From: an uncultured bacterium
GTDB taxonomy: Bacteria > Hydrothermota > E44-bin80
Assembly: GCA_964392665.1 (NCBI GenBank)
Contig: CAYMQB010000007.1
Location: 9,996 to 73,995 of the forward strand
Direction: 5' to 3'
DNA: 64,000 nt
Below are positions 40,962-55,231 of this stretch, in pieces (the stretch's first letter is position 1; each line of letters starts with the position of its first letter). The notes under the pieces were generated by a model. The model made no database searches. It was not told the origin of the DNA and saw only the letters and a list, made by a program, of their open reading frames with translations. The translations under genes and the position numbers were made by a program.

Positions 40962-42083
40962 CTACCCAAGTTCTTTGAGTTCGTCTTCTTTGAAGGTTAC
41001 AAGTGGTGCTTCTTCTTCTAAATCTCTACCAGGTTTGTAATCAAAAGCTGCCTGTGTTTCATCGCCGATAAGGTGGAAAAGTTCATAAACCTTTATATCA
41101 TTTGGGCAGGCATCGCTGCATAAACCGCAACCAATGCACGAAGTTGACATATGCGAAAGCCTTCCGAGGTGAAAGAAAATTGTATCTGTTGGCAATTTCA
41201 CTGCACCCTTTTTTTCTGCCCAACCAAGAAAATTAAGCGCGGTAAACTCAAATGTGGGTGATTCCCAGAAACATTCCTTACAGAAACAGATTGGACACTG
41301 TCCCATACAATTATGACAATCAATGCATTTCGAAAAATATTTTAGCAATCCGTCTATACTTACAACTTGTTTTTTCGTCTCTTCCTTTACCTTTTCCCAT
41401 TTTTCCTTTCTTGTATCCCCTATTTTTTGCAGTTTTTCATCCCGCTTTTTCGCTTCGCTTTTTTCCAAACCGAGTTTGGCAACTATTTCCTTCCCTTTGT
41501 TTGTATTACCCTCTACAATATATCCGTCACCTTCGGTACCGATAAAACCAATACCAATATCAGCAAAATCAGTTGGAAAGAAATTCTCGCACAGTTTACA
41601 AGCATCTCTTATGTTCTCGTCCTGCTCGCCTTTCGCGAGATTTTTGGAAAAGTATTCTGAATCGATATCTTTACCACTACCGAGCGCATCCTCGTAGTAG
41701 TCTGTCTTGTAAGCGCCCATACAGTCATAGCTTATGAGGATAAGATTATCGAGTGTTACCTGTTTGAATTTAGCCAATTCCAACAATGTCCGTAGTTCAC
41801 AGGGTTTAAGAAAAACAAGGATCTTTTCAGGTGAAGAAGAAAACTTAGTTATTTTCGACACCAGAGCAGCAGTACTTACGGGAAGTACAGGAGCAATTGG
41901 TTTTGCACTTTCCAAAAGTTCTTTGTTCTTTACAAGTGTTGGAAAAACATTGTTCTTGGATGGAATAAGCATTGGAATAACAATGTTAGTAATTTTATTA
42001 TTTTCCATTATCTGCAGAAGGAATTCTTTTAGGTTTTTATTCGGGTTATCACCTGCCACATTTAATTTATATTTTTCACCCAT
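40962..42083 (-). CDS. FrhB/FdhB-family iron-sulfur flavoprotein-like subunit
   Basis: FrhB_FdhB N-domain-like segment (ILVFLKPCELRTLLELAK), two Cys clusters (CIDCHNCMGQCP; CIGCGLCSDACP). Confidence 0.55.
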   Translation of the reverse strand: MGEKYKLNVAGDNPNKNLKEFLLQIMENNKITNIVIPMLIPSKNNVFPTLVKNKELLESAKPIAPVLPVSTAALVSKITKFSSSPEKILVFLKPCELRTLLELAKFKQVTLDNLILISYDCMGAYKTDYYEDALGSGKDIDSEYFSKNLAKGEQDENIRDACKLCENFFPTDFADIGIGFIGTEGDGYIVEGNTNKGKEIVAKLGLEKSEAKKRDEKLQKIGDTRKEKWEKVKEETKKQVVSIDGLLKYFSKCIDCHNCMGQCPICFCKECFWESPTFEFTALNFLGWAEKKGAVKLPTDTIFFHLGRLSHMSTSCIGCGLCSDACPNDIKVYELFHLIGDETQAAFDYKPGRDLEEEAPLVTFKEDELKELG

Positions 42084-42176
42084 ACTATCTCCTTTATGCT
42101 TTGTTTAGATACTAATTAACAGATACTCACTGATTGACTATCAAATAATTAGGTTGAACTTCTCTATATATTCTCT

Positions 42177-42592
42177 CTATACCGACCACTTTTTCCCTAT
42201 ATCTGATGGCCCCAGTTCTCTGATATGTTCCGTAAATTCCTTCATCGTTTGAGCGAATTTTCTTCCTTCGCTCGCACTTATCCATCTGAGCCAAAGTCTT
42301 CTCTGGTCCAGTCCTAAAGTTTTCATTATCGTTTCGAGAGTCTTTATTCGTCTCCTTGCTTTGTAGTTTCCCGATACATAGTGACAATCTCCCGGATGAC
42401 ATCCACCAATAATAACACCATCCGCACCTTCCAGAAAAGCCCGCCACACATAAGCAGTGTCTACTGAGCCCGAGCACATTACCCTGATGGGTCTGATATT
42501 GGGTGGATACTGCATTCTTGAGGTTCCTGCAAGATCGGCAGCGCTCGACGTACACCAGTTGCAAAAAAAACCTACAAGTTTTGGTTCAAATT
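42177..42592 (-). CDS. mvhD: MvhD-like (methyl-viologen-reducing hydrogenase delta subunit) Fe-S protein
   Basis: KLVGFFCNWCTSSAADLAGTSRMQYPPNIRPIRVMCSG is the canonical MvhD/FlxD signature. Start set at Met 42592 (MAGKFEP), which follows an AGGAGGGA SD. Confidence 0.8.
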
Positions 42593-42683
42593 TACCTGCC
42601 ATGTTCCCTCCTATGCAAATATTCAGCAAAATACGTGTTGAAACTTTCTAACTTAAAACTATGAACTCGTGTATTGTTTTAAG

Positions 42684-42700
42684 GTTACGATGCTCGTAAC
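42684..42700 (-). other. Perfect 7-bp stem / 3-nt loop hairpin (GTTACGA-NNN-TCGTAAC) in the sdhA-like/mvhD spacer
   Basis: Seen directly; not followed by a U-tract. Confidence 0.4.
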
Positions 42701-42758
42701 GTCTCACGGTTATGTCTTACGGGCATCTTTGCCTTATCCGTTACCAAAAACACATCCT

Positions 42759-44453
42759 TCATTCTTCTTCATAAAATCCTGTCACGCCTCCCCCAAGAAA
42801 CGGGTCGAATTCTTTCCTATGTTTTCTAATAACCTCGAAGTTTCTATAATCAGGCAAAAGAATAGGCGCAATTCTCTTCGTCTCTATTCCTGCATCTTTA
42901 ATTTCTTTCTCATATTTTCGAATATGGTCAAAATGAAGTTTTCCCAGTGTTACTTCCTTTGCTCGCTCCGCAGCGTTTATACCTGCCCTTCTTCCAAATA
43001 CATTATAATCAAGAACCGAGTTACCCATTAGTCTGTTTCTTCCATGAAGACCTCCGGATGCTTCCCCTGCAATGTAAAGGTTTGGAAGGTTTGTTTCACA
43101 CTTACTATTTATCTCTATTCCGCCATTTTGATAATGCAGCGTTGGAAAAACAAGCATTGGGTATTTGGAAATATCTATCTCGAATCTGTGATATTGCCTG
43201 ACCATTGCAGGCAACGCTTTCCCTATGGTTCCAGGACCACTCAAAATATCTATAATTGGCGAATCGAGCCATATGCCTACTCTACCTGCTGGTGTCTTTA
43301 TGCCTTTATCCCTTTCCGTGCACTCTCTTATAAAGGCAGATGCCTCAACATCTCTTGGTTCAAGAGGAAATACGAAAAGTTCACCAAATTTGTTGACAGG
43401 CTGACCCCCAAGCCCTCTTACCTTTTCCGTAACAAGAAATCCAAGTATCTGTTCAGGGAAAACCGCACCGGTCGGATGATACTGAACAGTATCCATATAG
43501 ATTAATCTTGCGCCAGCTCTGTATGCAATAACAAGACCATCCGCTGTTGCACCATAATGGTTCGTTGTAGCAAAACCCTGGAGATGCAATCTTCCAAAAC
43601 CACCGGTCGTAATGATAGTTGTCTTAGCCTTGACAATCACATATTCTTCAGTTTCGGTCTGATACAGAAGTGCACCTGCAACCTGACCTTTATCGTCCAG
43701 TAAGAGCTCTATCGCAGGTGTATATTCAAGAATCGTAATATCCTCCGGGTGGTTTTTTACCTCATCCCTTAGGGTTCTCATTATCTCTGCACCTGTGTAA
43801 TCTCGACAGGATAACATCCTTCTTCGTGAAGTTCCTCCGCCTGCTTTTGTTGAAAGTGTTCCATCCTCTTCCTTATCCCACATAACACCCAGTTCTTCCA
43901 GATAGGCGGTAATCATAGGTGCATCCATTGTTGCTGCTCGAACAAGTTTGGGCTTATTATCGAAATGTCCGCCACCAATAATGTCCAGATAGTGTATTAT
44001 GGGAGAATCGTGTGGGTTAATAGATGCCTGCATTCCACCTTGTGACATCATAGAATTGGAATCACCAATCCTCAACTTCGTAGAAACAACTACTTTTGCA
44101 CCATGTTTTTGTGCCCATATCGCTGCCATCGACCCCCCCCCACCACCACCGATAATGAGTACGTCAACATCGAAATCTACTTTAGAAAGGTCAACATCAT
44201 CTGGATTAATCCGCGAATGTGATTCAAGTATATCTACAACTTTCGTAATCAGCTTTTCGCCTTTATTCGGACCAATTCTTATTGACTTCCTCGCTTTTTC
44301 TTTATAATCCGGGTGAAATTTGTTGAGCAGTTCGTCCCTTTCTTTAAGCGTAGTCGGCTCAACTACCGGCTTGCCTAATTTTGCAAGTTCGACACGTTTA
44401 GGTCTTGTTTTCTCGACAAGTTTCAGTGATTCCATCATATATTCAGGATACAT
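42759..44453 (-). CDS. Fumarate reductase/succinate dehydrogenase flavoprotein-like subunit (SdhA/FrdA/TfrA-like)
   Basis: FAD-binding GxGxxG (LIIGGGGGGS), substrate HPT (QYHPTGAV), HYxxGG (HYQNGGIEIN) and C-terminal AGEASGGLHGRNRLMGNSVLD motifs. It carries a 90-aa N-terminal extension. L-aspartate oxidase is not fully excluded. Confidence 0.7.
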   Translation of the reverse strand: MYPEYMMESLKLVEKTRPKRVELAKLGKPVVEPTTLKERDELLNKFHPDYKEKARKSIRIGPNKGEKLITKVVDILESHSRINPDDVDLSKVDFDVDVLIIGGGGGGSMAAIWAQKHGAKVVVSTKLRIGDSNSMMSQGGMQASINPHDSPIIHYLDIIGGGHFDNKPKLVRAATMDAPMITAYLEELGVMWDKEEDGTLSTKAGGGTSRRRMLSCRDYTGAEIMRTLRDEVKNHPEDITILEYTPAIELLLDDKGQVAGALLYQTETEEYVIVKAKTTIITTGGFGRLHLQGFATTNHYGATADGLVIAYRAGARLIYMDTVQYHPTGAVFPEQILGFLVTEKVRGLGGQPVNKFGELFVFPLEPRDVEASAFIRECTERDKGIKTPAGRVGIWLDSPIIDILSGPGTIGKALPAMVRQYHRFEIDISKYPMLVFPTLHYQNGGIEINSKCETNLPNLYIAGEASGGLHGRNRLMGNSVLDYNVFGRRAGINAAERAKEVTLGKLHFDHIRKYEKEIKDAGIETKRIAPILLPDYRNFEVIRKHRKEFDPFLGGGVTGFYEEE

Positions 44454-44486
44454 TATTTTTCCTCCTTATTTCGCGATAGTAATCGG

Positions 44487-44515
44487 GAAATTAAGAAATT
44501 AGAAATTGCGAAATT
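44487..44515. repeat. 29-nt AAUUUC-repeat element upstream of the sdhA-like gene (copy B)
   Basis: GAAATTAAGAAATTAGAAATTGCGAAATT; 27/29 identical to copy at 45320-45348. Confidence 0.8.
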
Positions 44516-44603
44516 CATGAAGATAGTTTCCTTTTTGATTTTCGTACTTCCATACTTTTGTAATTTTGAACTTGCTTTTTTCTCATTTTCACAATTTCTT
44601 CTT

Positions 44604-45296: not shown

Positions 45297-45319
45297 TAAA
45301 ACCTCCTAAATAAAAATGC

Positions 45320-45348
45320 GAAATTAAGAAATTAGAAATTAGGAAATT
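45320..45348. repeat. 29-nt AAUUUC-repeat element upstream of the sdhB-like gene (copy A)
   Basis: GAAATTAAGAAATTAGAAATTAGGAAATT. The spacer further upstream contains (C/T)GAAAAT iterations. Confidence 0.8.
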
Positions 45349-45465
45349 GTTTCTTTTTGTGTTTATCCTGATTTTCGTAATTCCCATTTTCGCATTTTCG
45401 TCTGTTAAGAACATTCTACTCATTTTCCCTTCTGTATTTTCCTATTTTCGTGGTTTTCTCTTTTG

Positions 45466-47421
45466 TTAATATTCCTCTGTTGCAACTTCTACCATATCAA
45501 AAATCTGTTTCTTCGTGAAGTTCTTGTGCTGCATAGCACCACTGGGGCAGGCACCTGCACAGGCACCGCATCCTTCACAAAGAGCTTCATTTACAACTGC
45601 TACATTCTTTATAGGGTCAACCTCCACGGCAGTGTATGCGCATACACTTTCACAATTCCCACACCCGGCACATATCTCTTCGTCTACATATGCAATCACA
45701 GGATTTCCAAAAATATAATCTTTGCTGAAGAGTGCAAGTACCTTTGCGGCTGCACCGGAAGCCTGAGAAACAGCATCTGTAATGTCTTTTGGAAACTGTG
45801 ACATCCCGGCAATAAAAATCCCCGATGTTAAAGTCTCAAGCGGTCTTAGTTTCAGATGTGCTTCCTGAAACCATCCAAATTCGTCAGTTGAAAGTCTCAA
45901 TCTTTTTGCAAGTTCACTGCTCCCTTCCGATGGAATGATAGCGGTTGCAAGAACCACCAAGTCGGTAGACAACTCCACCTGCTCGCCTGTGAGTGTATCA
46001 ACGCCCCATAGTGTTAGATTCCCATTTTGCCTTGATATTTTCGAAATTTTCCCCCTTATATAAATTACATTATCTTCTTCTTTTGCTCTCTGTACGAATT
46101 CTTCATATCCTTTGCCATTAGAACGTATATCTATATAGAATATGTATGCCTGACCATCGGGAACTGCGTGTTTGTAAAGCATAGCCTGCTTTGCAAGATA
46201 CATACAACACACCCTTGAGCAGTATGCAACCCCATGTTCCGGGTCACGAGAACCTGCACAGGAGACAAAAGCAACATCTTTGGGAATCATTCTATTAGAA
46301 GGTCTTATTGGGACCCCATCTGTAGGACCCGAGGGGCATAAAAGCCTTTCGAATTGAAGTCCATTTATCACATCAGGGTCATTTACATATTCCTTTATTT
46401 GTTCGTTGGGCATCAGGTCAAAACCTGTTGCAACAACAATAGCGCCAACTTCCTCCTCGACTATTCTATCTTCTTGAGAAAAATCAACAGCCTCTCTCGG
46501 GCAAATGGACTGGCAGACCCTACAAGTCCCTTTAGTGAAGTGACCACAGTATTCTCTGTCTATAACGGGTATGTTAGGAACAGCCTGTGGAAAAGGTGTA
46601 TAAACAGCTTTCCTTTTACTCAAACCTAAATCAAACTCGCTTGTAACCGTAGTAAGACATTTTTCTATACACAAACCACAGCCATTACATTTTTCTCTAT
46701 CGATATAAGATGCCTTTTCTTTTATCTTCACCTTGAAATTCCCGACATACCCACTCACTTCTTCCACCTCGCTAAATGCATATATCTTAATATTCGGGTG
46801 CTGTGCAGCGGATACCATCTTGGGTGTCTCTATACATTGCGGACAATCAAGCGTGGGGAATGTTTCTGAAAGCTGTATCATTTTTCCACCGATGCTCGGG
46901 CTTTTCTCCACAAGAATTACCTCGTAACCTCCATCTGCAATATCAAGTGCTGTCTGTATCCCCGAAATCCCCCCACCTATTACCACTGCCCGTTTATTCA
47001 ATGGTATTCTTGCCGGTTCCAAACTGGCATCGTTTATAAGTTTATTTACCGTCATTTCTATTATCTTTAGGGCCTTGTTTGTAGCAAACTCCTTACCCTC
47101 ATGCTCGTGTGGCCAGGAACATTGTTCTCTTATATTCGCAATCTCACATCTATATGGATTAAGCCCTGCCCTCTCTGCTGCGTTTCTGAATGTCACCTCA
47201 TGAAGTGTAGGAGAACAGTTAGCAATAACAATACCATCAAGATGTTCCTTTTTTATCGTCTCTTCGACAAGTGATTGCCCCGGGTCAGCGCACATATACA
47301 TATAATGTGTGGAAAAAACCACACCTGGAATCTTTAATGATTCCGCTGCCGCTTTTTCTACATCAACTGCTTTGGCGATATTTAAACCACAATGACAGAC
47401 AAAAACTCCAATTCTGTTCAT
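45466..47421 (-). CDS. hdrA: Heterodisulfide reductase subunit A (HdrA-like FAD/FeS flavoprotein)
   Basis: N-terminal IGVFVCHCGLNIA domain, FAD GGGISG, inserted ferredoxin CNGCGLCIEKC..., C-terminal CAGCGNCESVC / CEGCGACAGACP clusters. Confidence 0.85.
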   Translation of the reverse strand: MNRIGVFVCHCGLNIAKAVDVEKAAAESLKIPGVVFSTHYMYMCADPGQSLVEETIKKEHLDGIVIANCSPTLHEVTFRNAAERAGLNPYRCEIANIREQCSWPHEHEGKEFATNKALKIIEMTVNKLINDASLEPARIPLNKRAVVIGGGISGIQTALDIADGGYEVILVEKSPSIGGKMIQLSETFPTLDCPQCIETPKMVSAAQHPNIKIYAFSEVEEVSGYVGNFKVKIKEKASYIDREKCNGCGLCIEKCLTTVTSEFDLGLSKRKAVYTPFPQAVPNIPVIDREYCGHFTKGTCRVCQSICPREAVDFSQEDRIVEEEVGAIVVATGFDLMPNEQIKEYVNDPDVINGLQFERLLCPSGPTDGVPIRPSNRMIPKDVAFVSCAGSRDPEHGVAYCSRVCCMYLAKQAMLYKHAVPDGQAYIFYIDIRSNGKGYEEFVQRAKEEDNVIYIRGKISKISRQNGNLTLWGVDTLTGEQVELSTDLVVLATAIIPSEGSSELAKRLRLSTDEFGWFQEAHLKLRPLETLTSGIFIAGMSQFPKDITDAVSQASGAAAKVLALFSKDYIFGNPVIAYVDEEICAGCGNCESVCAYTAVEVDPIKNVAVVNEALCEGCGACAGACPSGAMQHKNFTKKQIFDMVEVATEEY

Positions 47422-48083
47422 TTTTGTCGTCCTTTCGAGTCTATTTTTAGAACTTCCTCTATTGTCTCGCCGGTATTTTTCTTTCTGAACTCGTTCAGTT
47501 TCCCAAAAATGTTATCATTCAGTTTAATAAATTCACCATCAATAGTAATCGCTCCTGTGGGGCAAACATACGCGCATCCACCACAACCAATACAGGTATC
47601 AGAAATCTCAATAAACGGAGTTGCTACCTGTCTTTCCGATCCCCTTCCCACAAAATTTATGGCATGTGCTTCCGCAATTTCATCACAAACTCTTATGCAG
47701 AGCCCACATAAAATGCAATTGTTTTTATCTTCCAAAAACTTCCCTGCCTTAGCACCCATTTCCCTTGCAAGTTCTCTGATAACCTCTGAAGTTGAACTGC
47801 GGGCAAGCAGAAGTTCCATTATACCCTTTCGCAATTTCTTAATCCTCTCTGTGTCCGTTTTTACTACAAGTCCAGGTCGAACAATATACAGACACGAAGT
47901 TACTACCTTGCTCCTATTCCCTTCTTGGACTTCAACACTACAAAGCCTGCAAGCCCCCGATGGAGAAACTGCTTCATGATAGCAGAGCGCTGGGATTTTT
48001 ATCCCAACTCGTCTTGCAGTAGTAAGTATTGTTTCCCCTTCTACTGCCCCAAATTTTTTGCCATCTATTTCTATCTCTATCAT
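47418..48083 (-). CDS. 2Fe-2S + 4Fe-4S ferredoxin-like protein homologous to the N-terminal domains of NuoG/HydA (no catalytic domain)
   Basis: MIEIEIDGKKF...CYHEAVSPSGACRLCSV (plant-type 2Fe-2S) followed by CILCGLCIRVC and CIGCGGCAYVCP; only 221 aa. Confidence 0.7.
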   Translation of the reverse strand: MIEIEIDGKKFGAVEGETILTTARRVGIKIPALCYHEAVSPSGACRLCSVEVQEGNRSKVVTSCLYIVRPGLVVKTDTERIKKLRKGIMELLLARSSTSEVIRELAREMGAKAGKFLEDKNNCILCGLCIRVCDEIAEAHAINFVGRGSERQVATPFIEISDTCIGCGGCAYVCPTGAITIDGEFIKLNDNIFGKLNEFRKKNTGETIEEVLKIDSKGRQK

Positions 48084-49903
48084 TTTTTAAACACCGCATC
48101 AAAATTGCACACTTGATAACATATTCCACATTTTATGCATTTCGATGTATCTATCACATGGTTCTCCTTTTGCTCCCCGGAAATAGCACCTACAGGGCAT
48201 TTCCTTGCGCACAGAGTACATCCTGTACACTTTTCCGGGTCAATCCCGTATTCTATTAATTCCTTACATACACCAGCAGGGCATTTCTTATCCTTAATGT
48301 GTGCGTTAAATTCGTCTCTGAAGAATTTTATCGCAGTGAGAACCGGATTTGCTGCACTTTTGCCAAGCCCACATAGAGCACCATATTGAAGGGTAAACGC
48401 TATCTCTTCTAATAACCCAATGTCTTCCTCTTTGCCTTCTCCACTTGAGATCCGATCCAATATTTCTTTCATTCTCTTCAGTCCTTCTCTGCAAGGAACA
48501 CATTTCCCACAAGATTCTGTTACAAGGAATGAAATGAAATATTTGGCCATATCTACCATACAGGTATCTTCATCCCCTACGACCATTCCACCCGAACCCA
48601 TCATCGAGCCGGCATTAGTCAGGCTGTCAAAATCAACAGGAAGGTCAAGCAGTTCTTCTGGCAAAAACCCCCCTGAAGGCCCACCGGTTTGAACCATTTT
48701 AAACTTTTTTCCCTTCTTGATTCCGCCACCAATATTGAAGATTATGTCCCTTAATGTGACACCCATTGGTACTTCGACAAGCCCAGTATTATTAACTTTA
48801 CCTGTCAAGGAAAAAACCTTTGTTCCTTTACTACCTCCCCATGGGCTCCTCGATACATCACCTGTCCCTATAGTGGTAAACCACTTCGCACCTCTGTTTA
48901 TTATCACAGGTATGTTAGCCCATGTTTCAACATTGTTGAGACAGGAAGGTTTGTTCCATAGACCATACTCAACGGTATGAATGTATTTCGCCCTTGGAAC
49001 CCCGGCTTTCCCTTCTAACGAAGCCATCAGTGCAGTTGATTCGCCGCAAACAAAGGCACCTGCACCTCTGTGAACTTCAATGTCAAAATTAAAACCCGTA
49101 TCAAAAATATTGTTACCAAGAAGTCCATATTCTCGAGCCTGCATAATAGCAGTATTCAAGCGATCCAATGCGATTGGATATTCTTTTCTTATATATACAT
49201 ACCCTTCTTGGGCGCCTACAGCATATGCACCTATAATCATTCCTTCAATAACAGAATGAGGATCAGACTCCATAATAGTCCTATCCATATATGCTCCAGG
49301 ATCACCCTCGTCTGCGTTACATATCACATATCTAATTTCCGACCTTTTTTCACCAGCCCGTCTACAGGATTCCCATTTGATACCCGTGGGAAAACCCCCT
49401 CCTCCCCTACCACGTAAACCTGATGCTTTAATCTCCTCAATTACCTCTTCTGGTTTCATAGTAGAAACCACCTTTGCGAGCGCAGAATATCCATCACGTG
49501 CGATATAATCAGTAATTTTTTCGGGGTCTATTAATCCCCTATTACGCAAGGCGATAAGAACTTGTTGTCTAAAAAACGGTATTTCCGGCAGAGTAGGGAT
49601 AGGCATTTTTTCCTTAGGTGGTGTATACATTAGTTTCTTTACAGGTCTACCTTTAAGAAAATGCTCTTCAACAAGAAACGGCACATCCTTTTCCTTAACC
49701 CCTTGGTAGAAAACGCCATCCGGTTGAACCAATATTATTGGTCCCGCATCACAAAAACCGAAGCATCCGGTTGAAACCAGCCTAATTTCTTCCGTAAGAT
49801 TGTGTTTCTTCAATTCTTTTGCAATACTTTCCCTTATTTCAAACGAGTTGTTTTCTATACAAGTTGTTCCCATACAAATCAAAACATCTGTTCTAAATGG
49901 CAT
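48080..49903 (-). CDS. NuoF/HndC/HydB-like NADH-binding FMN flavoprotein subunit (51-kDa-type)
   Basis: N-terminal thioredoxin-like 2Fe-2S, GRGGGGFPTG FMN/NADH site, SCGKCVPCREG N3 cluster, C-terminal 2x[4Fe-4S]. Confidence 0.85.
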   Translation of the reverse strand: MPFRTDVLICMGTTCIENNSFEIRESIAKELKKHNLTEEIRLVSTGCFGFCDAGPIILVQPDGVFYQGVKEKDVPFLVEEHFLKGRPVKKLMYTPPKEKMPIPTLPEIPFFRQQVLIALRNRGLIDPEKITDYIARDGYSALAKVVSTMKPEEVIEEIKASGLRGRGGGGFPTGIKWESCRRAGEKRSEIRYVICNADEGDPGAYMDRTIMESDPHSVIEGMIIGAYAVGAQEGYVYIRKEYPIALDRLNTAIMQAREYGLLGNNIFDTGFNFDIEVHRGAGAFVCGESTALMASLEGKAGVPRAKYIHTVEYGLWNKPSCLNNVETWANIPVIINRGAKWFTTIGTGDVSRSPWGGSKGTKVFSLTGKVNNTGLVEVPMGVTLRDIIFNIGGGIKKGKKFKMVQTGGPSGGFLPEELLDLPVDFDSLTNAGSMMGSGGMVVGDEDTCMVDMAKYFISFLVTESCGKCVPCREGLKRMKEILDRISSGEGKEEDIGLLEEIAFTLQYGALCGLGKSAANPVLTAIKFFRDEFNAHIKDKKCPAGVCKELIEYGIDPEKCTGCTLCARKCPVGAISGEQKENHVIDTSKCIKCGICYQVCNFDAVFKK

Positions 49904-49921
49904 TTTACTTATCCTCTTTAG

Positions 49922-50305
49922 CTACTCTGTCTTTTCGCTTCCCGCGGCCAATGCATATTCCTTAATTATCTCGCCCTTCTGAACATGCTTTTCAAATATT
50001 TCCTCTATTTTTTTCTCCGTAAGGTCAACATATTTAACAGGCGGCATCCCTTTAACTTCAACCGTTGCCATTGGCTCGCGGCTGCAAAGACCAGCACATC
50101 CACTGGTCGTAAGTATAACATCTTCCACTTGTTTTTCTTCTATTATCTTCAAGAGTGCATTCATAATTTTGCGTGCGCCTGCGGCAATTCCACAAGTTCC
50201 CATATGTACTACAATCTTAGCTCTTCCTTTTCCTTCTCGAAGAATGGAGGTTCTCCGAGCCTTTTCCTTTATCTTCTTCAAGTCCTCCGGTGTTATTCTC
50301 GGCAT
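49922..50305 (-). CDS. Thioredoxin-like [2Fe-2S] ferredoxin (HydD/HndB-like)
   Basis: About 127 aa, Cys pattern HMGTCGIAAG...SGCAGLC. Confidence 0.65.
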   Translation of the reverse strand: MPRITPEDLKKIKEKARRTSILREGKGRAKIVVHMGTCGIAAGARKIMNALLKIIEEKQVEDVILTTSGCAGLCSREPMATVEVKGMPPVKYVDLTEKKIEEIFEKHVQKGEIIKEYALAAGSEKTE

Positions 50306-50314
50306 TAATTCCTC

Positions 50315-50851: not shown

Positions 50852-50867
50852 CTGTAATCCACCTTTT

Positions 50868-51401
50868 CTAAGTATTTCTCTTTTTTTTTAGACCTTCTCT
50901 TAATATTCTAATTCCCTGTGAAGAGCTTATGGGTATATCCTGGAGTTTTTCTCGAATCTCTTCTGTATCGAAAATAGAGAGTTTTCCATCTTTTCTGTGT
51001 TCATAAAGAAAATTAACCGATGGATTTCCAATAACAAGTGTTTCAATTGTTTTCCCGACATCACCGAGTGGCTGGCGATCAATATGGCTATATTGGAAAC
51101 TAGCTCTTACGATAGTTCCTTTTCCCTCGTTTGACTCTATGGAGAATTTTCCATTAGCCATTTCGGCTGCTTGTTTCAAGAGTGTAAGACCCAGACCAAC
51201 CTTTCTCACCTTTTTACTTGTGAAAAAGGGATCTGTTGCTTTTTCCAATATGTTACGTGACATACCCTCACCATTATCTCCAATTTCAATAGTTAGCTTA
51301 TCTTCCTGTATGTTTTCGTTTACAGCAATATGCACCTTGCTTGCTCCTGCTCTTACTGAGTTTTCGACAATATCCAGAACATGTAAAGAAATATCTTCCA
51401 T
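50868..51401 (-). CDS. Histidine-kinase-like ATPase (HATPase_c) domain protein
   Basis: GHKL N/G1/G2 boxes (ENSVRAGAS; DNGEGM; GLGLTL). Confidence 0.7.
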   Translation of the reverse strand: MEDISLHVLDIVENSVRAGASKVHIAVNENIQEDKLTIEIGDNGEGMSRNILEKATDPFFTSKKVRKVGLGLTLLKQAAEMANGKFSIESNEGKGTIVRASFQYSHIDRQPLGDVGKTIETLVIGNPSVNFLYEHRKDGKLSIFDTEEIREKLQDIPISSSQGIRILREGLKKKRNT

Positions 51402-51402
51402 G

Positions 51403-52146
51403 TTACTGTGCGCTTAAAACCTTTCTCCCCTCTACACCCTTAAATGCCTTGTAAAGTTCTTCCGCATTCGTATCTTCAAGTAAAAACGATGTTGTTTTCT
51501 TCCCGATGTCCTCCAAATAGTGAGCATCGGAGAAACTAACGATCGGAAAATTGTCAATCTCCGGATGAGTTACGCGTAACTGTCTCAATTTGCCTAACGA
51601 TGAAACCTCGACACCATCCAGCTTGAGTCCACTGGGGATAAAACCTAATTGACCAATAATGCTAAAAGCTTCTCGGTCAATATGTGAGGCAATAGCAACA
51701 CCACCCAGGTTATGAACTATATCGATAATTTGCTCGAGAAAAAGTGTTGTGGCTCCAATCAATAATCTCTCATTGATGCCGAGCATTTCGTCTTTGTCGT
51801 CCACTATTACCTGTTCACCAAAAACTACTTCATTATTGATTCCGGGTAAGTGTTCGTAAACTATATTTTTAATGTTTTCAAGTCCGGCGCCTGTCCTGAA
51901 AAATGCAAGAATGTGAGCTTCTTCCTGAGAGGTTATTTCAATCCCTCCTATAACAGACACCCCTTCTTTCTCTCCCGCTTTCTGAACAGCTGCAACATTT
52001 TCAGTTGTATTGTGGTCACATATTCCAATTATGTCCAAGTTTTTCTCCTTTGCCTTCATAATTATCAAAGTTGGTAGCATACTCAAATCACCACAGGGAG
52101 AAAGGCATGTATGAATATGCAAATCTCCTCTAAATTCCTCCAGCAT
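51403..52146 (-). CDS. PHP-domain (polymerase/histidinol-phosphatase-like) protein
   Basis: FRGDLHIHT..., later HxD metal motifs; probable start at internal Met (MLEEFRGDLHIHT). Confidence 0.7.
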   Translation of the reverse strand: MLEEFRGDLHIHTCLSPCGDLSMLPTLIIMKAKEKNLDIIGICDHNTTENVAAVQKAGEKEGVSVIGGIEITSQEEAHILAFFRTGAGLENIKNIVYEHLPGINNEVVFGEQVIVDDKDEMLGINERLLIGATTLFLEQIIDIVHNLGGVAIASHIDREAFSIIGQLGFIPSGLKLDGVEVSSLGKLRQLRVTHPEIDNFPIVSFSDAHYLEDIGKKTTSFLLEDTNAEELYKAFKGVEGRKVLSAQ

Positions 52147-52489
52147 CAGCAGTCCCAGGAATACCCATTCTATGTAATTTCCCAACAACTTCGAAAGCTG
52201 GTAAATTGCTCACCAAAATAGGTATTCCCTCTTTTTCAGCTTTTTTGATTGTTTCATTTTCAGGTACTCTACTATTAACCAACACAATTCCCGCAAGGTT
52301 CTTAAGCGAAGCAACAGCAACTATATTTTGATGAATTTGGAGTGTAATCCAGATATCTCCCTCGCGGCTATTTGCCATAACATCACTTAACAGATCACTA
52401 ACGTATCCTCCACTGATTTCTTTGTCAAGATTACTGGATCCAGTTTTTACATCAAGCTCCAATTTATCAACGATCTCTTTAAGTTTCAT
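52130..52489 (-). CDS. DRTGG-domain protein
   Basis: About 119 aa with the conserved D-R-T-G-G-like segment (GDIWITLQ...VNSRVP). Confidence 0.6.
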   Translation of the reverse strand: MKLKEIVDKLELDVKTGSSNLDKEISGGYVSDLLSDVMANSREGDIWITLQIHQNIVAVASLKNLAGIVLVNSRVPENETIKKAEKEGIPILVSNLPAFEVVGKLHRMGIPGTADAGGI

Positions 52490-53406
52490 TCTTTCCCCAT
52501 TTTGATAATTATCGTAATACGCGTCCCTTTTTCAACGGAAGAATCAATGGACATCTCATCGCTACACTTCTTAATGTTTGCCAACCCCATGCCTGCACCA
52601 AAACCCATCTCCCTGACCCAGTCGGGGGCAGTTGAATATCCGGGTCGCATCGCTTTCTCTACATCAGGAATCCCAGGGCCACTATCTTCCGCTTCAATTT
52701 TGATCAGCTCAGGTCTAACCTCTGCCTTTATTTTCCCTTTATCAGTAAAAACCACAATGTTCATTTCCGCTTCATAGGTTGCGATAGCCACCCTGCGAAT
52801 AATGCTGGGACTGATATTGAGACGGGTTAGAGTTTTCTTTAACTCACTCGAGCTCTTCCCTGCTTCCGAGAAATCTCTTCCATTAATACTGTAAAGTAGT
52901 ATCAGAGCAGCGTGGTCCGCAAGCGTATCTTCAAATATATGGCTTGCACGATAACGATGAATTTCCTCTTCATGATAATCTATTTCCAGACGTTTCAGCA
53001 ATCCTTTTATAATGTCACCTTTGGTAAGCATTCCAACAAGGTTTTTTGTTCCTCTGTCAAGAACAGGAAATCTCCCAAGCCCAAATTGGTCAAACTTACT
53101 TACCGCATGGATAACCGGATCATCCGCATACACGGTTTTTACACCTTTACTCATTCTTTTTTCTATTTCCGTATCCACTTCGCCACTTGATAGCCAGTTG
53201 ATAAAGTCCTCAATGCTGATAATACCCACAAGTGAATGCCCGTTAACAACAGGCACGCCGGATATATTGTTATCCTTCAATATTTTTCTTAACTCGCTCA
53301 TTAGCATCCTTGGAGAAACTGTAATAGTATTTTTCTTCATTACCTCACTCACCTTCAACTCGTAAGCAAGCTCTTGAACCCTGGTAAAACTCTGATCCTT
53401 CATCAC
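52486..53406 (-). CDS. CBS-pair + HATPase-like domain protein
   Basis: Two CBS motifs (ISGVPVVNGHSLVGIIS; LGRFPVLDRGTKNLVGMLT) then GHKL-like C-terminus (GFGAGMGLANIK). Confidence 0.65.
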   Translation of the reverse strand: MMKDQSFTRVQELAYELKVSEVMKKNTITVSPRMLMSELRKILKDNNISGVPVVNGHSLVGIISIEDFINWLSSGEVDTEIEKRMSKGVKTVYADDPVIHAVSKFDQFGLGRFPVLDRGTKNLVGMLTKGDIIKGLLKRLEIDYHEEEIHRYRASHIFEDTLADHAALILLYSINGRDFSEAGKSSSELKKTLTRLNISPSIIRRVAIATYEAEMNIVVFTDKGKIKAEVRPELIKIEAEDSGPGIPDVEKAMRPGYSTAPDWVREMGFGAGMGLANIKKCSDEMSIDSSVEKGTRITIIIKMGKE

Positions 53407-53765
53407 TTACTCTCTTTATACTCTATCCTCCCGAGTAAACCATTCTGATACAATTTTCCACACGCTTCAAACATTGTCAAATCAGTTGAAAGAAGTACAA
53501 TACCTTTTTCCTTTGCCAGTTCCACAGTCTCTTGTAATGGTTTTTTTGACCGAACAAAACAGATGGCAACCAGGTCAGCCATTTCTGCCGTGCGCACCGA
53601 CTGTGGATTTATAAGCCCTGTTAGTAACAGAGAACCTGATTTCATAAATGCCAGAACATCGCTCATCAGGTCTGAACCACCAGCCATTTTAATCTCTTTG
53701 TTCAAATCGTTGTCACCTGCAAGTACTACTGCATCTAGTATCTCTTTTATCCTTTCCAGTTTCAT
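53403..53765 (-). CDS. DRTGG-domain protein
   Basis: Paralogous to 52130-52489 (LLTGLINPQSVRTAEMADL). Confidence 0.6.
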   Translation of the reverse strand: MKLERIKEILDAVVLAGDNDLNKEIKMAGGSDLMSDVLAFMKSGSLLLTGLINPQSVRTAEMADLVAICFVRSKKPLQETVELAKEKGIVLLSTDLTMFEACGKLYQNGLLGRIEYKESK

Positions 53766-53840
53766 CTATTATACACTCTCTTCCTTTTTTACAGCCGAAT
53801 CCTCGAGATCATGGATTTATTCCGACAACGCATATACAAA

Positions 53841-54734
53841 TCATACTTTCCCCTTAACCAAAAAACCCTTTTCTTCCATTTTCTCGGTTGGACTAACTAT
53901 ATTTAGGTCAAAACGAGTCCCTGATTCATCGTAACCGAAAGCAAGAGCCAACAGTTGAGTGAAGTAAACAATAGGCATTTTTTTGAAGCCGAAATATTTC
54001 TCAGCCACATCCTCCTGCTTTGCTTCAAGGTTATAGGCACAGAGTGGACAGGAAAGCGCTATAAGATCAGCGCCTGCATTCCTTGCCGAGTTGACTATCG
54101 TTCGTGTTCTTTCGATAACAATATCCGGTCTTCTCAATGTCTGATAACTTCCACAACATTCATTCTTATACGGAAATTTAACGGTTTCCGCTCCTGTCAA
54201 ATTAATCACATCTTCAAAAATCGTCGGTTCTTCAATGTCATCGATTGCTGCTTCTTCCGGTCGAAGGAGCATACAACCATAATAAGTTGCAATTTTTAAA
54301 CCACTTAGAGAAATCTTTGTTTGCTCTTTTAACCTATCAAATCCAATTCTCTTCAGTAACTCGAGCAGATGAATGACTTTGACCTCTCCGTCATATTTTA
54401 CGATTTCTTTGTACATAAAATCCTTTATTTTATCTTTCTTTTCAATATCCTTCTTAACAAGTAAATTTGCCCTCTTCAATGTGTTGTAGCACATCGAACA
54501 TAAAGTAACAACTTCACTTCCACCTTCTTCTTTAACCCTGAGAAGGTTTCTAACCGGAGCAAGCTGGTGTATGATATCATCGGAAGTTAGTGAATATACT
54601 GTTCCACAACAGGTCCATCTTTTCAACTCGTCCAATTCAATCCCGAGTTTTCCAAGAACTGCAATTGCTGAAATCTCAAAATGCTGAGCAGTCGTTTTTA
54701 TTGTGCATCCAGGATAATATTTTACCTTTTCCAT
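53841..54734 (-). CDS. hdrB: Heterodisulfide reductase subunit B (two CCG domains)
   Basis: YYPGCT...CCGT and YYGCM...CCGS: duplicated Cx(n)CCGx(n)CxxC cysteine-rich domains. Confidence 0.85.
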   Translation of the reverse strand: MEKVKYYPGCTIKTTAQHFEISAIAVLGKLGIELDELKRWTCCGTVYSLTSDDIIHQLAPVRNLLRVKEEGGSEVVTLCSMCYNTLKRANLLVKKDIEKKDKIKDFMYKEIVKYDGEVKVIHLLELLKRIGFDRLKEQTKISLSGLKIATYYGCMLLRPEEAAIDDIEEPTIFEDVINLTGAETVKFPYKNECCGSYQTLRRPDIVIERTRTIVNSARNAGADLIALSCPLCAYNLEAKQEDVAEKYFGFKKMPIVYFTQLLALAFGYDESGTRFDLNIVSPTEKMEEKGFLVKGKV

Positions 54735-54739
54735 GTTTC

Positions 54740-55231
54740 CTAAGAAGTAAGCTTTCTGAATGTTCCAACAAGAAGTATCGGTGGAGCTTTTTCTAATTCT
54801 TCGGGATTGACATCCTTCAGTTCGAAATCATCCTTCTTTGCTCGTAAAGATACCTGCCTTAAGGATTCCATAATAGCAGCAACGTCTATTCCTTTTGGAC
54901 ATCTCGAAGAACACACAAAACAGGAACAACAAGCAAAGGGTGTATTTGTTTCCAGAATTCTCTTAACATTTCCAAATTGCAGAAGCCTCATTACCTGATT
55001 GGGGAGCAAGTCCATAAAAGGAGCGGAGGGACATCCTGCCGAGCACTTGCCGCATTGATAACAGGAATACTGGTTTTCGAGAGAAAGGGTTATTACTTTT
55101 GTTGTTTCTGCGTTTCTAATATCTTTCGTTTCTATCTTTCCCACTATAGTACTCCTTTCCGAATAAAAAAAACACTTTATTGTATACAACTTCTTGCTTT
55201 CTTTGTCAAGCCTTTTTGTTAAACTTTTCAC
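54740..55231 (-). CDS. hdrC: Heterodisulfide reductase subunit C (2x[4Fe-4S])
   Basis: CYQCGKCSAGCP and CCSCFVCSSRCP; 60-aa N-terminal extension suggests the real start may be internal/non-ATG. Confidence 0.75.
   Translation of the reverse strand: MKSLTKRLDKESKKLYTIKCFFYSERSTIVGKIETKDIRNAETTKVITLSLENQYSCYQCGKCSAGCPSAPFMDLLPNQVMRLLQFGNVKRILETNTPFACCSCFVCSSRCPKGIDVAAIMESLRQVSLRAKKDDFELKDVNPEELEKAPPILLVGTFRKLTS

Follow-up and report, generated by a model that had tools for sequence, protein, structure and literature searches.

The window, that is, the whole 64-kb stretch of DNA that was analysed, carries 16 co-directional minus-strand genes between positions 40962 and 55144, forming an operon of ~14 kb. 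The order is HdrC, HdrB, five regulator-like proteins, NuoE, a thioredoxin (Trx)-like protein, a HydB-type NuoF, a HoxU-like ferredoxin, HdrA, an SdhB-like and an SdhA-like protein, MvhD, and an FdhB/FlxC-like protein. All the genes that a sequence-only reading had placed on this strand were found in the order it gave, and each call was backed by Pfam, NCBIfam, and PDB searches:

54740..55144, minus strand: hdrC-like; Fer4_17 and TIGR03290 matches, two CxxCxxCxxxC [4Fe-4S] motifs
53841..54734, minus strand: hdrB; two Pfam CCG domains, all 10 cysteines present
53403..53765, minus strand: DRTGG-domain protein; Pfam DRTGG at 23.6 bits, slightly under the 25.2-bit gathering cut-off
52486..53406, minus strand: CBS-CBS-HATPase protein with SpoIIAB-like kinase fold; Pfam CBS (twice) and HATPase_c, TIGR01925 (anti-sigma F factor) 54 bits
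52130..52489, minus strand: second DRTGG-domain protein; Pfam DRTGG
51403..52146, minus strand: PHP-domain phosphoesterase; Pfam PHP and PHP_C, relatives of 246 aa
50868..51401, minus strand: HATPase_c protein; Pfam HATPase_c 65 bits
50315..50851, minus strand: NuoE/HoxE/HydC-like [2Fe-2S] subunit; Pfam 2Fe-2S_thioredx 160 bits, HoxE 138 bits, NuoE 122 bits
49922..50305, minus strand: small thioredoxin-like protein in the HndB/HydD position; weak 2Fe-2S_thioredx match
48080..49903, minus strand: HydB/Bfu-type NuoF; N-terminal [2Fe-2S] domain, FMN/NADH module, C-terminal 2x[4Fe-4S] (Pfam)
47418..48083, minus strand: HoxU-like ferredoxin, [2Fe-2S] plus 2x[4Fe-4S]; Fer2_4 and Fer4, HoxU 143 bits
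45466..47421, minus strand: hdrA, full-length flavoprotein; HdrA2 model 752 bits
44604..45296, minus strand: sdhB-like Fe-S subunit; Pfam Fer2 and Fer4, C-terminal charged extension
42759..44453, minus strand: sdhA-like flavoprotein, predicted fumarate-reducing subunit; FAD_binding_2 232 bits, fold matching SdhA/FrdA
42177..42602, minus strand: mvhD/flxD; Pfam FlpD 181 bits, VhuD 133 bits
40962..42083, minus strand: FdhB/FrhB-like Fe-S protein; FrhB_FdhB_C and Fer4

The most probable start of hdrC is the GTG at 55144: an AAGGAG ribosome-binding site precedes it, and the product has 134 aa, the length seen in homologues; the ORF called mechanically extends too far upstream, to 55231. The mvhD gene starts at ATG 42602 (141 aa), and a start-codon scan places the PHP start probably at ATG 52146. 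Intergenic gaps did not exceed 169 bp and no terminator-like hairpin was detected within the cluster, the first on the minus strand lying at 40118-40101, in agreement with the single transcription unit suspected earlier. When gene neighbourhoods were compared, as the sequence-only reading had suggested, the identical order was seen again in the independent assemblies L083/L084, L093, L004, and L090, indicating that the cluster is not a chance juxtaposition.

The NADH-input cassette consists of NuoE, the Trx-like protein, NuoF, and the HoxU-like ferredoxin. NuoF matched HydB of bifurcating hydrogenases over its full length with 795 bits (7q4v_B), and also the NiFe-Hyd B subunit 7t2r_B, against only about 364 bits for NuoF of complex I. 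Its motifs for FMN, NADH, and the N3 cluster were intact and the Bfu-type domain set was complete. Alignment of the Trx-like protein with its relatives and with the NuoF N-terminus revealed a conserved H-x3-C...C-x3-C pattern. The ferredoxin, previously labelled HydA/NuoG-N-terminal-like, is present as described, but it belongs to a HoxU-like family of short, 200-240-aa proteins, and its closest homologues are all within 200-255 aa; the His-ligated [4Fe-4S] motif was missing in all aligned members, and the protein has no H-cluster domain. The nearest neighbours of the cassette outside the family were located in [NiFe]-hydrogenase operons, so that the scaffold is not specifically [FeFe]-hydrogenase-like as had been thought. 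The absence of a hydrogenase was borne out: neither an Fe_hyd_lg_C (H-cluster) domain nor any other hydrogenase catalytic domain was present in the window ORFs scanned (at least 150 aa and not embedded in a larger gene, other than those at 27197-27664 and 56367-57044). An H-cluster gene completing HydABC, which would have spoken against the sequence-only reading, was found neither among these window ORFs nor in the syntenic relatives.

Residues 3-645 of HdrA aligned to HdrA of the solved Mvh-Hdr complex (5odc_A, 646 bits). HdrB scored 174 bits with TIGR03288 and 164 bits with NF042965, the type-E SdhE anchor model; it also matched the C-terminal half of the TfrB model, of which the SdhB-like protein matched a short central Fe-S stretch. 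The best PDB matches of the FdhB/FrhB-like protein, 9t1s_M, 8rvu_E, and 7bkb_E, were FdhB subunits of Fdh-Hdr complexes, and by position it corresponds to FlxC.

The SdhB-like and SdhA-like proteins form a tight family, with 65-91% identity across many phyla. They are invariably paired, and a naturally fused SdhB::SdhA homologue (P0372) exists. When aligned with E. coli FrdB, the SdhB-like protein kept every cluster ligand, which argues against its being an unrelated ferredoxin. It carries two full CxxCxxCxxxCP motifs, and thus the usual [3Fe-4S] site is a four-cysteine site; the earlier description of an all-4Fe-4S SdhB needs correction in that the [2Fe-2S] cysteines are present too. At its N-terminus, the SdhA-like protein bears a 95-aa extension specific to the family; the canonical C-terminal domain is missing. 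Its top NCBIfam model was TfrA (338 bits), and it fell under the cut-off of every NCBIfam model. L-aspartate oxidase (NadB), the identity that would have undermined the sequence-only reading, was rejected: the score of 247 bits fell short of the cut-off of 453, and at the position of the NadB-specific Glu121 the family has an invariant glycine. The equivalents of the FrdA catalytic residues His232/Thr234 (HPT), Arg287, His355, and Arg390 were all retained, whereas the histidine that binds FAD covalently (FrdA His44) was replaced by asparagine. In complex II enzymes, non-covalent FAD favours fumarate reduction, so the replacement suggests this direction.

Neighbours were counted over 41 SdhBA loci with long flanks. 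HdrA lay beside SdhBA in 38 of them, HdrB in 37, and MvhD in 36, and a ferredoxin-dependent 2-oxoacid oxidoreductase was inside the operon in about 28. Three related operons (L030, L042, and L053) had the order fumarase alpha-beta, HdrA-HdrC-HdrB, SdhB-SdhA, malic enzyme; fumarase also occurred in L021 and L024, and a CitMHS carboxylate transporter in L011/L085. The 64-kb window itself contained no fumarase, malate dehydrogenase, or other C4-branch gene. The acceptor had been regarded as unreadable from sequence, but because related operons include class I fumarase and malic enzyme, this comparative context points to fumarate as the most likely electron acceptor. What varied was the input module attached to the constant core. 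In some loci it was FlxAB together with a 2-oxoacid oxidoreductase, in others an HdrA-GltD fusion or a Vhu/Mvh-type [NiFe] hydrogenase; the cluster described here has NuoE-Trx-NuoF-HoxU along with regulators. The locus closest by SdhA (L088, 91% identity) was without NuoE, Trx, NuoF, and the regulators, indicating that the core does not depend on the NADH cassette.

The HydB/Bfu-type NuoF, the full-length HdrA, and the conserved catalytic residues agree with the soluble, NADH-linked, HdrA-containing complex with a fumarate-reductase-like end module proposed at the outset. With moderate confidence, we suggest that the cluster encodes a cytoplasmic HdrABC-based NADH:fumarate oxidoreductase, in which flavin-based electron bifurcation most likely lets exergonic fumarate reduction drive the endergonic reduction of ferredoxin. 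In the predicted complex, the FMN of NuoF, together with NuoE and the Trx-like protein, would oxidise NADH. The FAD of HdrA would then receive the electrons by way of the HoxU-like ferredoxin, the FdhB/FlxC-like protein, and MvhD. From there, one electron of each pair would reduce ferredoxin, and the other would travel via HdrC, the non-cubane clusters of HdrB, the SdhB-like protein, and the non-covalent FAD of the SdhA-like protein to fumarate. The net reaction would be 2 NADH + fumarate + 2 Fd(ox) -> 2 NAD+ + succinate + 2 Fd(red), at about -35 kJ/mol as estimated from standard potentials. HdrBC would thus serve as an adaptor wiring HdrA to SdhB rather than as a free disulfide reductase, similar to the HdrB-like domain fused in TfrB and to SdhE in type-E complex II. 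Two bifurcating-type flavoproteins, Bfu-type NuoF and HdrA, share the operon, which counts against a firm assignment of the bifurcation site. Two copies of a repeated motif also bear on this reading:

45320..45340, minus strand: 21-nt AT-rich motif, copy 1; upstream of sdhB within a 169-bp spacer
44487..44507, minus strand: 21-nt motif, copy 2; upstream of sdhA within a 150-bp spacer

This motif, AATTTCTAATTTCTTAATTTC, occurred twice in 64 kb against 0.06 occurrences expected. The 130-170-bp spacers with the repeat around sdhB and sdhA could reflect separate regulation, which counts against the bifurcating complex.

All the gene-content evidence would fit equally well a soluble NADH:fumarate reductase that does not bifurcate, in which electrons run through the Fe-S chain and the Hdr subunits to SdhAB without reducing ferredoxin, much like the five-subunit NADH-dependent enzyme of Hydrogenobacter thermophilus. 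Soluble NADH-dependent fumarate reductases are known, and are described as irreversible, in a passage of PMC13147460 citing Miura 2008, and some non-methanogen HdrABC and some HydABC enzymes are thought not to bifurcate (PMC5861303). However, a full-length HdrA with 646 bits to the bifurcating archaeal enzyme would be a costly plain wire, a loss of about 350 mV would be unusual among strict anaerobes, and the in-operon 2-oxoacid oxidoreductase of so many relatives is easily explained if the complex yields reduced ferredoxin. We therefore regard this alternative as possible but unlikely.

Still more doubtful are two enzymes joined by a soluble thiol/disulfide or a DsrC/TusA-like protein, with SdhAB and HdrB-type chemistry acting as a TfrAB-like thiol:fumarate reductase and NuoEF-HdrABC re-reducing the disulfide while bifurcating to ferredoxin. 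Both CCG motifs of HdrB, the disulfide-reducing site in methanogens, are complete, TfrA is the top model for the SdhA-like protein, TusA and DsrE-like genes adjoin the cluster in L001, and the Endoriftia model permits transfer via a DsrC-like protein (PMC11636981). Yet the SdhB-like protein itself lacks a CCG domain, which means that HdrB would have to be physically attached for thiol oxidation, and thiol-cofactor, DsrC, and TusA genes were absent from the cluster and its syntenic relatives. SdhE-type HdrB homologues, moreover, need no thiol substrate for their function in complex II.

Operation in reverse, with succinate and reduced ferredoxin confurcating to NAD+ in syntrophic propionate/succinate oxidation, appears very improbable. 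Bifurcating enzymes are in principle reversible (PMC5861303), and a role in syntrophic propionate oxidation has been proposed for Cloacimonadota, most of which have no classical succinate dehydrogenase (PMC12590816). But the reverse reaction would cost about +34 kJ/mol by standard potentials, the SdhA-like protein lacks the covalent-FAD histidine on which efficient succinate oxidation depends, relatives carry malic enzyme and fumarase in their operons, and the similar Pseudoclostridium thermosuccinogenes operon comes from a succinate producer (PMC7282089). Finally, the scores under every curated family cut-off, NadB models at 200-250 bits, the unusual N-terminal extension, and the truncated C-terminus might suggest an L-aspartate oxidase or a reductase of another unsaturated acid placed incidentally beside Hdr, but we give this hardly any credence given the invariant glycine at NadB Glu121, the constant SdhB-like and nearly constant Hdr partners, the fumarase and malic enzyme in the same operon in several lineages, and the higher scores of TfrA and SdhA/FrdA models than of NadB.

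The Hdr-linked fumarate reductase is a predicted enzyme type, already proposed for P. thermosuccinogenes, Endoriftia, and some Cloacimonadota; to our knowledge, no member has been purified so far. In P. thermosuccinogenes, the succinate operon comprises fumarate hydratase, Flx-Hdr, and fumarate reductase and was reported to be up-regulated about 4-fold under CO2 limitation (PMC7282089). Endoriftia combines Hdr-Flx with tfrAB and korABCD (PMC13147460), in a cluster expressed in an operon-like manner except for tfrAB, which did not share the pattern (PMC11636981), and Ca. Celaenobacter has Mvh, Hdr, and TFR in one cluster (PMC8542988). The window cluster resembles the P. thermosuccinogenes and Endoriftia operons in gene content and count (PMC7282089, PMC13147460, PMC11636981). 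The sequence-only reading had set it apart from Flx/Flox-Hdr systems, but its core (HdrCBA, MvhD=FlxD, FlxC-like, then SdhB-SdhA) matches the one in the Flx-Hdr-linked loci L001/L002; FlxAB is the sole part replaced. We found no published description of a NuoEF-fed Hdr-linked fumarate reductase; the locus analysed here differs from the already predicted enzyme type in its NADH-input module. The regulatory module noted earlier is present and was resolved into five genes (DRTGG, CBS-CBS-HATPase, DRTGG, PHP, and HATPase). The first DRTGG-domain protein was kept in L083, L090, and L093, and the HATPase_c gene lay immediately upstream of nuoE in these three loci as well as in L094 and L095. All five accompany the NuoE-Trx-NuoF cassette, of which they are presumably regulators.

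On the minus strand between 40962 and ~55144, 16 co-directional genes were found, and Pfam, NCBIfam and PDB sequence searches assigned them to the order below. The cluster that the sequence-only reading had listed is thus real, with its genes in the order given there.

Genes of the cluster in order
Gene 1, minus strand: HdrC-like protein with two 4-Cys motifs; start most likely GTG 55144, with an AAGGAG site ahead of the start codon
Gene 2, minus strand: HdrB with two CCG domains
Gene 3, minus strand: DRTGG protein
Gene 4, minus strand: CBS-CBS-HATPase
Gene 5, minus strand: second DRTGG protein
Gene 6, minus strand: PHP phosphoesterase
Gene 7, minus strand: HATPase
Gene 8, minus strand: NuoE/HoxE-like protein
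Gene 9, 49922-50305, minus strand: thioredoxin-like protein, 127 aa
Gene 10, minus strand: NuoF, 607 aa; [2Fe-2S] domain at the N-terminus, 2x[4Fe-4S] domain at the C-terminus
Gene 11, minus strand: HoxU-like ferredoxin, 221 aa
Gene 12, minus strand: HdrA, 651 aa
Gene 13, minus strand: SdhB-like protein, 230 aa
Gene 14, minus strand: SdhA-like protein, 564 aa
Gene 15, minus strand: MvhD, start corrected to ATG 42602
Gene 16, minus strand: FdhB/FrhB-like Fe-S protein

Most of the genes overlapped or lay no more than 20 bp apart, the larger gaps being 75 bp after hdrB and spacers of 93-169 bp around sdhB, sdhA, and mvhD. No terminator-like hairpin was found inside the cluster, and its flanks were unrelated, with a divergent recA upstream and an AbfB-domain lipoprotein and a C25 peptidase downstream. 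A scan for sigma-70-like promoters returned fewer sites than in shuffled sequence, and an Rfam search of the window returned no RNA family. All genes of the cluster fell into soluble Fe-S or flavoprotein families, and none encoded a membrane anchor of the FrdC/FrdD/SdhC/SdhD type. Pfam scans of the remaining window ORFs revealed housekeeping genes only and no C4-pathway context.

A 21-mer, AATTTCTAATTTCTTAATTTC, occurred on the minus strand exactly twice in the 64 kb, against 0.06 expected: at 44487-44507, in the spacer upstream of sdhA (44454-44603), and at 45320-45340, in the spacer upstream of sdhB (45297-45465). Both spacers were AT-rich, with an A-rich 5' half able to pair with the 21-mer. 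Related AATTTC-repeat spacers were present at two of the loci fetched from relatives, L093 and L088, and in other phyla the same genes were packed tightly.

Neighbourhood comparison bore out that this exact gene order recurs elsewhere. The order, including the regulators, was found in the relatives' loci L083/L084 (SdhA 85% identical to that of the window), L004 (SdhA 82%), and L093 (NuoF 73% identical, with recA/recX upstream as in the window), and more distantly in L090 (SdhA 66%), which carried an extra second large HdrA-like gene. The exact proteins of the window were found on 25-29 contigs in public metagenomes, with JGI 3300031365 and 3300031575 among the samples. Because of this recurrence and these identical proteins, the cluster appears to be a stable, inherited operon. 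The closest relative by SdhA (91% identity) was L088 (7525-16372), which showed the same recA/AbfB synteny and lay on a scaffold bearing a protein labelled by NCBI as candidate division WOR-3. Missing from it were NuoE, Trx, NuoF, and all five regulators; its HdrB was split into two ORFs, and the HoxU-like gene that it retained was just 53% identical to that of the window. Simple deletion does not account for the difference between L088 and the window.

In an alignment of the SdhA-like protein to FrdA and NadB of E. coli, the HPT motif (His232/Thr234 of FrdA) was retained, and the catalytic Arg287, His355, and Arg390 of FrdA corresponded to R346 (within TEKVRGLGG), H440, and R474, respectively. 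The covalent-FAD histidine, His44 of FrdA, was replaced by Asn133, so the flavin should be non-covalent. In complex II enzymes, a non-covalent flavin goes with fumarate reduction, not with succinate oxidation. The best-scoring curated model was that of TfrA (NF004900), and at 338 bits against a cut-off of 718 the protein is not a TfrA equivalog; the match began at residue 94, leaving a 95-aa N-terminal extension outside it. The C-terminus was short, without a PF02910 (Succ_DH_flav_C) match. The SdhB-like protein retained all four [2Fe-2S] cysteines of FrdB and two complete CxxCxxCxxxCP motifs, and its third cluster site had four cysteines. It had no CCG domain, the CCG domains sitting in the separate HdrB, so it is not a fusion of the TfrB type. 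The pair was also distinct from membrane-bound complex II (QFR/SQR), with no covalent-FAD histidine, Succ_DH_flav_C domain, [3Fe-4S] site, or anchors. An AlphaFold2 model of the SdhA-like protein (pLDDT 68.7, low in the active-site loops) supported the SdhA/FrdA fold only, and its N-terminal extension was unreliable.

Homologues of the SdhA-like protein with 65-91% identity were found in MAGs labelled Cloacimonadota, WOR-3, Hydrothermota, Aminicenantes, Caldisericota, Aerophobetes, Stahlbacteria, Clostridia, and Bacteroidales, and in one Bathyarchaeia. There were 351 relatives among ~185,000 GTDB species representatives. A library clustered at the 50% level contained essentially a single full-length member of the family (61% identity, 730 bits); the next-nearest relatives were 37-48% identical and partly shared the N-terminal extension, and ordinary SdhA/NadB-like proteins scored ~250 bits. 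We then compared the ORFs of 80 fetched loci with the window proteins, and 41 of these loci had at least 8 kb upstream and at least 4 kb downstream. SdhB adjoined SdhA in all 41, accompanied by HdrA in 38, HdrB in 37, MvhD in 36, and the FlxC-like protein in 31. SdhA was the best-conserved component, at 65-91% identity compared with 38-84% for HdrA and 45-73% for HdrB. The SdhAB-like pair thus forms a family of its own, strongly conserved and linked to Hdr. A natural SdhB::SdhA fusion of 727 aa, P0372 of the representative library, was 48% identical to the SdhA-like protein of the window.

Around the constant core of SdhBA, HdrCBA, and MvhD (plus FlxC), four types of input were found. The commonest, in Aminicenantes and others, consisted of FlxB and FlxA, with a four-subunit 2-oxoacid:ferredoxin oxidoreductase between hdrB and hdrA. 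In the second, HdrA and a GltD-like NAD(P)H module formed one fusion protein of 1125-1475 aa, and in the third a Vhu/Mvh-type [NiFe] hydrogenase was present (L005, L006, and L021). The fourth, that of the window, was the NuoE-Trx-NuoF-HoxU cassette with five regulator-like genes; the cluster had no FlxA/FlxB homologues, and the cassette stood in their place. The NuoF aligned over its full length at 795 bits with HydB of HydABC (7q4v_B) and with subunit B of the bifurcating NiFe hydrogenase, compared with ~364 bits for complex I NuoF, and is of the bifurcating-enzyme (Bfu/HydB) type. A HydB-type NuoF (N-terminal 2Fe-2S, FMN, C-terminal 2x4Fe-4S) and a HydC-type NuoE were thus both present.

The sequence-only reading had also held that the cluster contains no hydrogenase, and this proved correct. 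Neither the 221-aa HoxU-like protein nor any other window ORF that was scanned had the H-cluster domain (Fe_hyd_lg_C), and it was also missing from the stretches fetched around the clusters at L083 and L093, ~10 kb on each side. The HoxU-like family comprised proteins of 200-255 aa, the closest homologues of the window protein being all short, and the His-ligated [4Fe-4S] motif of HydA, NuoG, and HoxU was gone in 8/8 aligned members. An incomplete HydABC with a hydrogenase nearby was therefore rejected for the window and its syntenic relatives. The thioredoxin-like protein (49922-50305, minus strand) had only three cysteines, its first ligand being replaced by a conserved His (H-x3-C...C-x3-C) in 6/6 aligned homologues.

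A HATPase-NuoE-Trx-NuoF cassette (NuoF 68% identical) also occurred within [NiFe]-hydrogenase operons with MvhD, at L094 (3342-14648) and L095 (694-9632), and its companions at L094 were HdrC/HdrB, a DRTGG protein, and a HydS-like sensory [FeFe]-hydrogenase domain. Because of this second setting, the regulator-plus-diaphorase cassette looks like a portable, mobile unit. At L089, a NuoE-NuoF-HoxU trio accompanied a 2-oxoacid oxidoreductase.

Full-length HdrA, HdrB with two CCG domains (10 Cys), HdrC with 2x4Fe-4S, and MvhD were all present. Their scores were all under the curated equivalog cut-offs, so the Hdr proteins of the window are homologues and not equivalogs of the CoM-CoB Hdr. HdrA matched 5odc_A over its full length with 646 bits, and the best PDB matches of the FlxC-like protein were FdhB of solved Fdh-MvhD-Hdr complexes. 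In the TfrB model, the C-terminal half was matched by the HdrB of the window and a short central Fe-S stretch by the SdhB-like protein; TfrB therefore looks like a fusion of an HdrB-type and an SdhB-type protein. HdrB also matched SdhE, a subunit of type-E complex II, over almost the whole length (164 bits). These two precedents, TfrB and SdhE, support direct contact between HdrB and SdhB.

Gene context, together with the active-site residues, makes fumarate the likely acceptor, and the context is the decisive evidence. The operon of the Caldisericota-type loci L030, L042, and L053 ran class I fumarase alpha, fumarase beta, HdrA(-MvhD fusion), HdrC, HdrB, SdhB, SdhA, malic enzyme; fumarase was also carried by L021 and L024, and a CitMHS carboxylate transporter stood at the end of L011/L085. 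The NADH-linked Hdr-fumarate function proposed by the sequence-only reading was essentially right, whereas its statement that the acceptor cannot be read from sequence gave way to fumarate by gene context.

The most economical reading of the gene content is a NADH-dependent, HdrA-based fumarate reductase. We infer that the proteins form a complex, that it bifurcates, and that electrons would follow this path. NuoF would oxidise NADH, and electrons would pass from HoxU through the FdhB/FlxC-like protein and MvhD, the last two bridging proteins as in the Fdh-MvhD-Hdr complexes, to HdrA. There the pair would be split between ferredoxin and the HdrC-HdrB branch, from which HdrB would deliver electrons to SdhB and then SdhA. 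With standard potentials of -320 mV for NADH and +30 mV for fumarate (our own estimate), the drop should comfortably cover the cost of raising a second NADH pair to the level of ferredoxin. It is possible, and in our judgement rather unlikely, that this is the first natural complex uniting two independently evolved bifurcating modules (Bfu-type NuoF/FMN and HdrA/FAD), with the non-cubane clusters of HdrB as an electrical adaptor to fumarate reductase and no disulfide reduced.

The main alternative is a NADH:fumarate reductase that does not bifurcate, which suits the gene content equally well. A two-step scheme through a thiol or DsrC carrier is possible because HdrB keeps all ten cysteines, but the SdhB-like protein has no CCG domain and a carrier gene is absent nearby. 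The lack of the covalent-FAD histidine and the energetics both speak against reverse operation, in which succinate would be oxidised for syntrophy. An SdhA-like protein acting as L-aspartate oxidase (NadB) or on another substrate is rejected: it scored 247 bits against the NadB model TIGR00551 (cut-off 453), its family has an invariant glycine at Glu121 of E. coli NadB, which we take to be a NadB-specific residue, and its Fe-S partner is obligatory, the SdhB-like protein with its FrdB-type cysteines being no unrelated ferredoxin.

Among the predicted soluble fumarate reductases linked to Hdr, the cluster is best filed as a variant with a new input module; the basic idea of such enzymes is already published. 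For Pseudoclostridium thermosuccinogenes, a real succinate producer, bifurcation was proposed for a fumarate reductase whose genes follow Flx-Hdr (2019 preprint of Koendjbiharie & van Kranenburg, cited in PMC7282089). Its succinate operon comprises fumarate hydratase, seven Flx-Hdr genes, and two reductase genes, and is reported to be ~4-fold up at low CO2 (PMC7282089). In both systems a soluble two-subunit fumarate reductase directly follows the Hdr/Flx set, and bifurcation from NADH to fumarate and ferredoxin is proposed. The window differs in that NuoE, the Trx-like protein, HydB-type NuoF, the HoxU-like protein, and five regulator-like genes replace FlxA/FlxB, and in that no fumarase lies within its operon. 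The cluster carried hallmarks of the Flx-Hdr-FR type, an anchorless SdhA/SdhB pair with hdrA, hdrB, hdrC, mvhD/flxD, and flxC adjoining the reductase genes. It had HdrC, HdrB, HdrA, MvhD (FlxD), FlxC-like, SdhB, and SdhA in common with the Flx-type loci L001/L002, and orthology held at the SdhA level (67-68% identity to these two, 65-91% across all input types). The earlier view that the arrangement differs from Flx-Hdr systems was therefore not upheld: the core is the same, and just FlxAB are replaced.

A cluster of Hdr-Flx, TfrAB, and KorABCD is described for Ca. Endoriftia persephone / Thiobarba (Rubin-Blum 2019 model; PMC13147460, PMC11636981), and in Endoriftia it was proposed to supply the rTCA cycle (PMC13147460). 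The Endoriftia cluster mostly acts as one operon by expression, with tfrAB outside the shared pattern (PMC11636981), and Ca. Celaenobacter (Cloacimonadota) has a Mvh-Hdr-TFR-OGOR cluster (PMC8542988). Like the window, these place Hdr beside a soluble AB-type fumarate reductase, with NADH- or H2-driven bifurcation to fumarate and ferredoxin as the idea. The Aminicenantes-type loci had the Endoriftia-like layout with the 2-oxoacid oxidoreductase in the operon, and the [NiFe]-hydrogenase version was that of L005, L006, and L021. The window, in contrast, had no 2-oxoacid oxidoreductase, Flx, or hydrogenase, and rTCA genes were absent nearby.

TfrAB of Methanothermobacter resembles the SdhAB of the window in its non-covalent FAD (predicted here), its four-Cys Fe-S sites, and the parts of TfrB, an SdhB-like half and an HdrB-like CCG half. 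In the window, however, the two halves are separate genes and the host is a bacterium. We know of no CoM/CoB thiol pair, or of its synthesis, in such bacteria. With methanogen MvhADG-HdrABC and Fdh-MvhD-HdrABC, the window shares an HdrA, HdrB, HdrC, and MvhD of canonical length and with canonical ligands. Its FlxC-like protein is similar to FdhB, the bridge from Fdh to MvhD and HdrA in the methanogen complex. The donor in the window would be NADH via NuoEF instead of H2 or formate, and the likely acceptor fumarate via SdhAB instead of CoM-S-S-CoB.

In domain content, NuoE, the Trx-like protein, and NuoF corresponded to HydC, HydD/HndB, and HydB of the Bfu-type enzymes (HydABC, HndABCD, NiFe-HydABCSL, NfnABC, HylABC-Fdh), and regulator-like genes beside the cassette were common to the window and [NiFe]-hydrogenase operons. 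Unlike these enzymes, the window had no catalytic hydrogenase, Fdh, or GltD module; its A-subunit was a 221-aa ferredoxin without the His-ligated cluster, and the partner was HdrA, a second, evolutionarily independent bifurcating-type flavoprotein.

Recent surveys of WOR-3 and Cloacimonadota still class their Hdr as methanogen-like heterodisulfide reductase (PMC12542636, PMC12590816). In Hydrogenobacter thermophilus, a soluble NADH-dependent multi-subunit fumarate reductase (Miura 2008) serves a reductive C4 branch (PMC13147460). With five subunits, this enzyme is likewise soluble, NADH-dependent, and multi-subunit, as proposed for the window. Its extra subunits are probably GltD-like and HdrB/C-like, with no HdrA known among them, which would make it a non-bifurcating cousin. 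In the literature we found no published description of the NuoE/NuoF, HdrA, and SdhAB combination, of the NuoE-NuoF-HoxU-fed form, or of the family-wide modularity, and no published demonstration of NADH-dependent, ferredoxin-coupled fumarate reduction for any family member.

HdrABC genes are common in anaerobic bacteria without CoM-S-S-CoB, and their substrate is mostly unsettled. Two points are of interest here. A single operon combines HdrA with a NADH module of the Bfu type, and the family suggests a concrete and testable acceptor for bacterial HdrABC. The SdhAB-Hdr family, spread over many uncultured phyla, ties HdrABC to a specific and thermodynamically suitable acceptor, fumarate. If HdrB does act as an adaptor, this would be a general answer to the role of "heterodisulfide reductase" in bacteria lacking heterodisulfide. 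If the complex bifurcates, succinate formation would yield extra reduced ferredoxin and hence extra ATP via Rnf, or extra H2, which would alter the energy balance of fermenters and of carbon fixation by the reductive TCA cycle. The swappable inputs (H2, NADH/Flx, NAD(P)H/GltD, and NADH/NuoEF) are a natural experiment in modular redox-enzyme evolution, and the NuoEF version, compact and complete as an operon, could suit heterologous expression.

Other features of the window were recorded. A 916-aa ORF (21406-24156, minus strand), an extremely Glu/Lys-rich coiled coil without a Pfam match, accounts for a strong GC and AT skew and overlaps the end of a XerC/D-type tyrosine recombinase gene (24153-25133). 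Gly-rich tandem repeats with periods of 12, 81, and 156 nt (15107-15513, plus strand) lay in ORF 14499-17213, which encodes a 904-aa HEAT-repeat protein. The type IX secretion C-terminal sorting domain was matched strongly by a Porphyromonas-type peptidyl-arginine deiminase (31358-33100, minus strand) and weakly, under the Pfam cut-off, by a C25 (gingipain-family) peptidase (37548-39953, minus strand). These matches indicate a host of the FCB group, and the nearest named MAGs carry the label of either WOR-3 or Cloacimonadota. Three ORFs in a row of 588, 185, and 636 aa (1228-5385, plus strand) had no Pfam match at E <= 1e-5 and were followed by a Ser/Thr kinase-TPR protein. An HNH endonuclease gene lay at 29215-29739 (plus strand), and at 33216-34689 (plus strand) an AbiEii-type toxin gene followed an unannotated 225-aa ORF, and the two may form a toxin-antitoxin pair. 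An ORF matching the DnaA ATPase and C-terminal domains was located at 63253-63966 (minus strand), ~8 kb from the cluster, so the operon may lie close to a replication origin.
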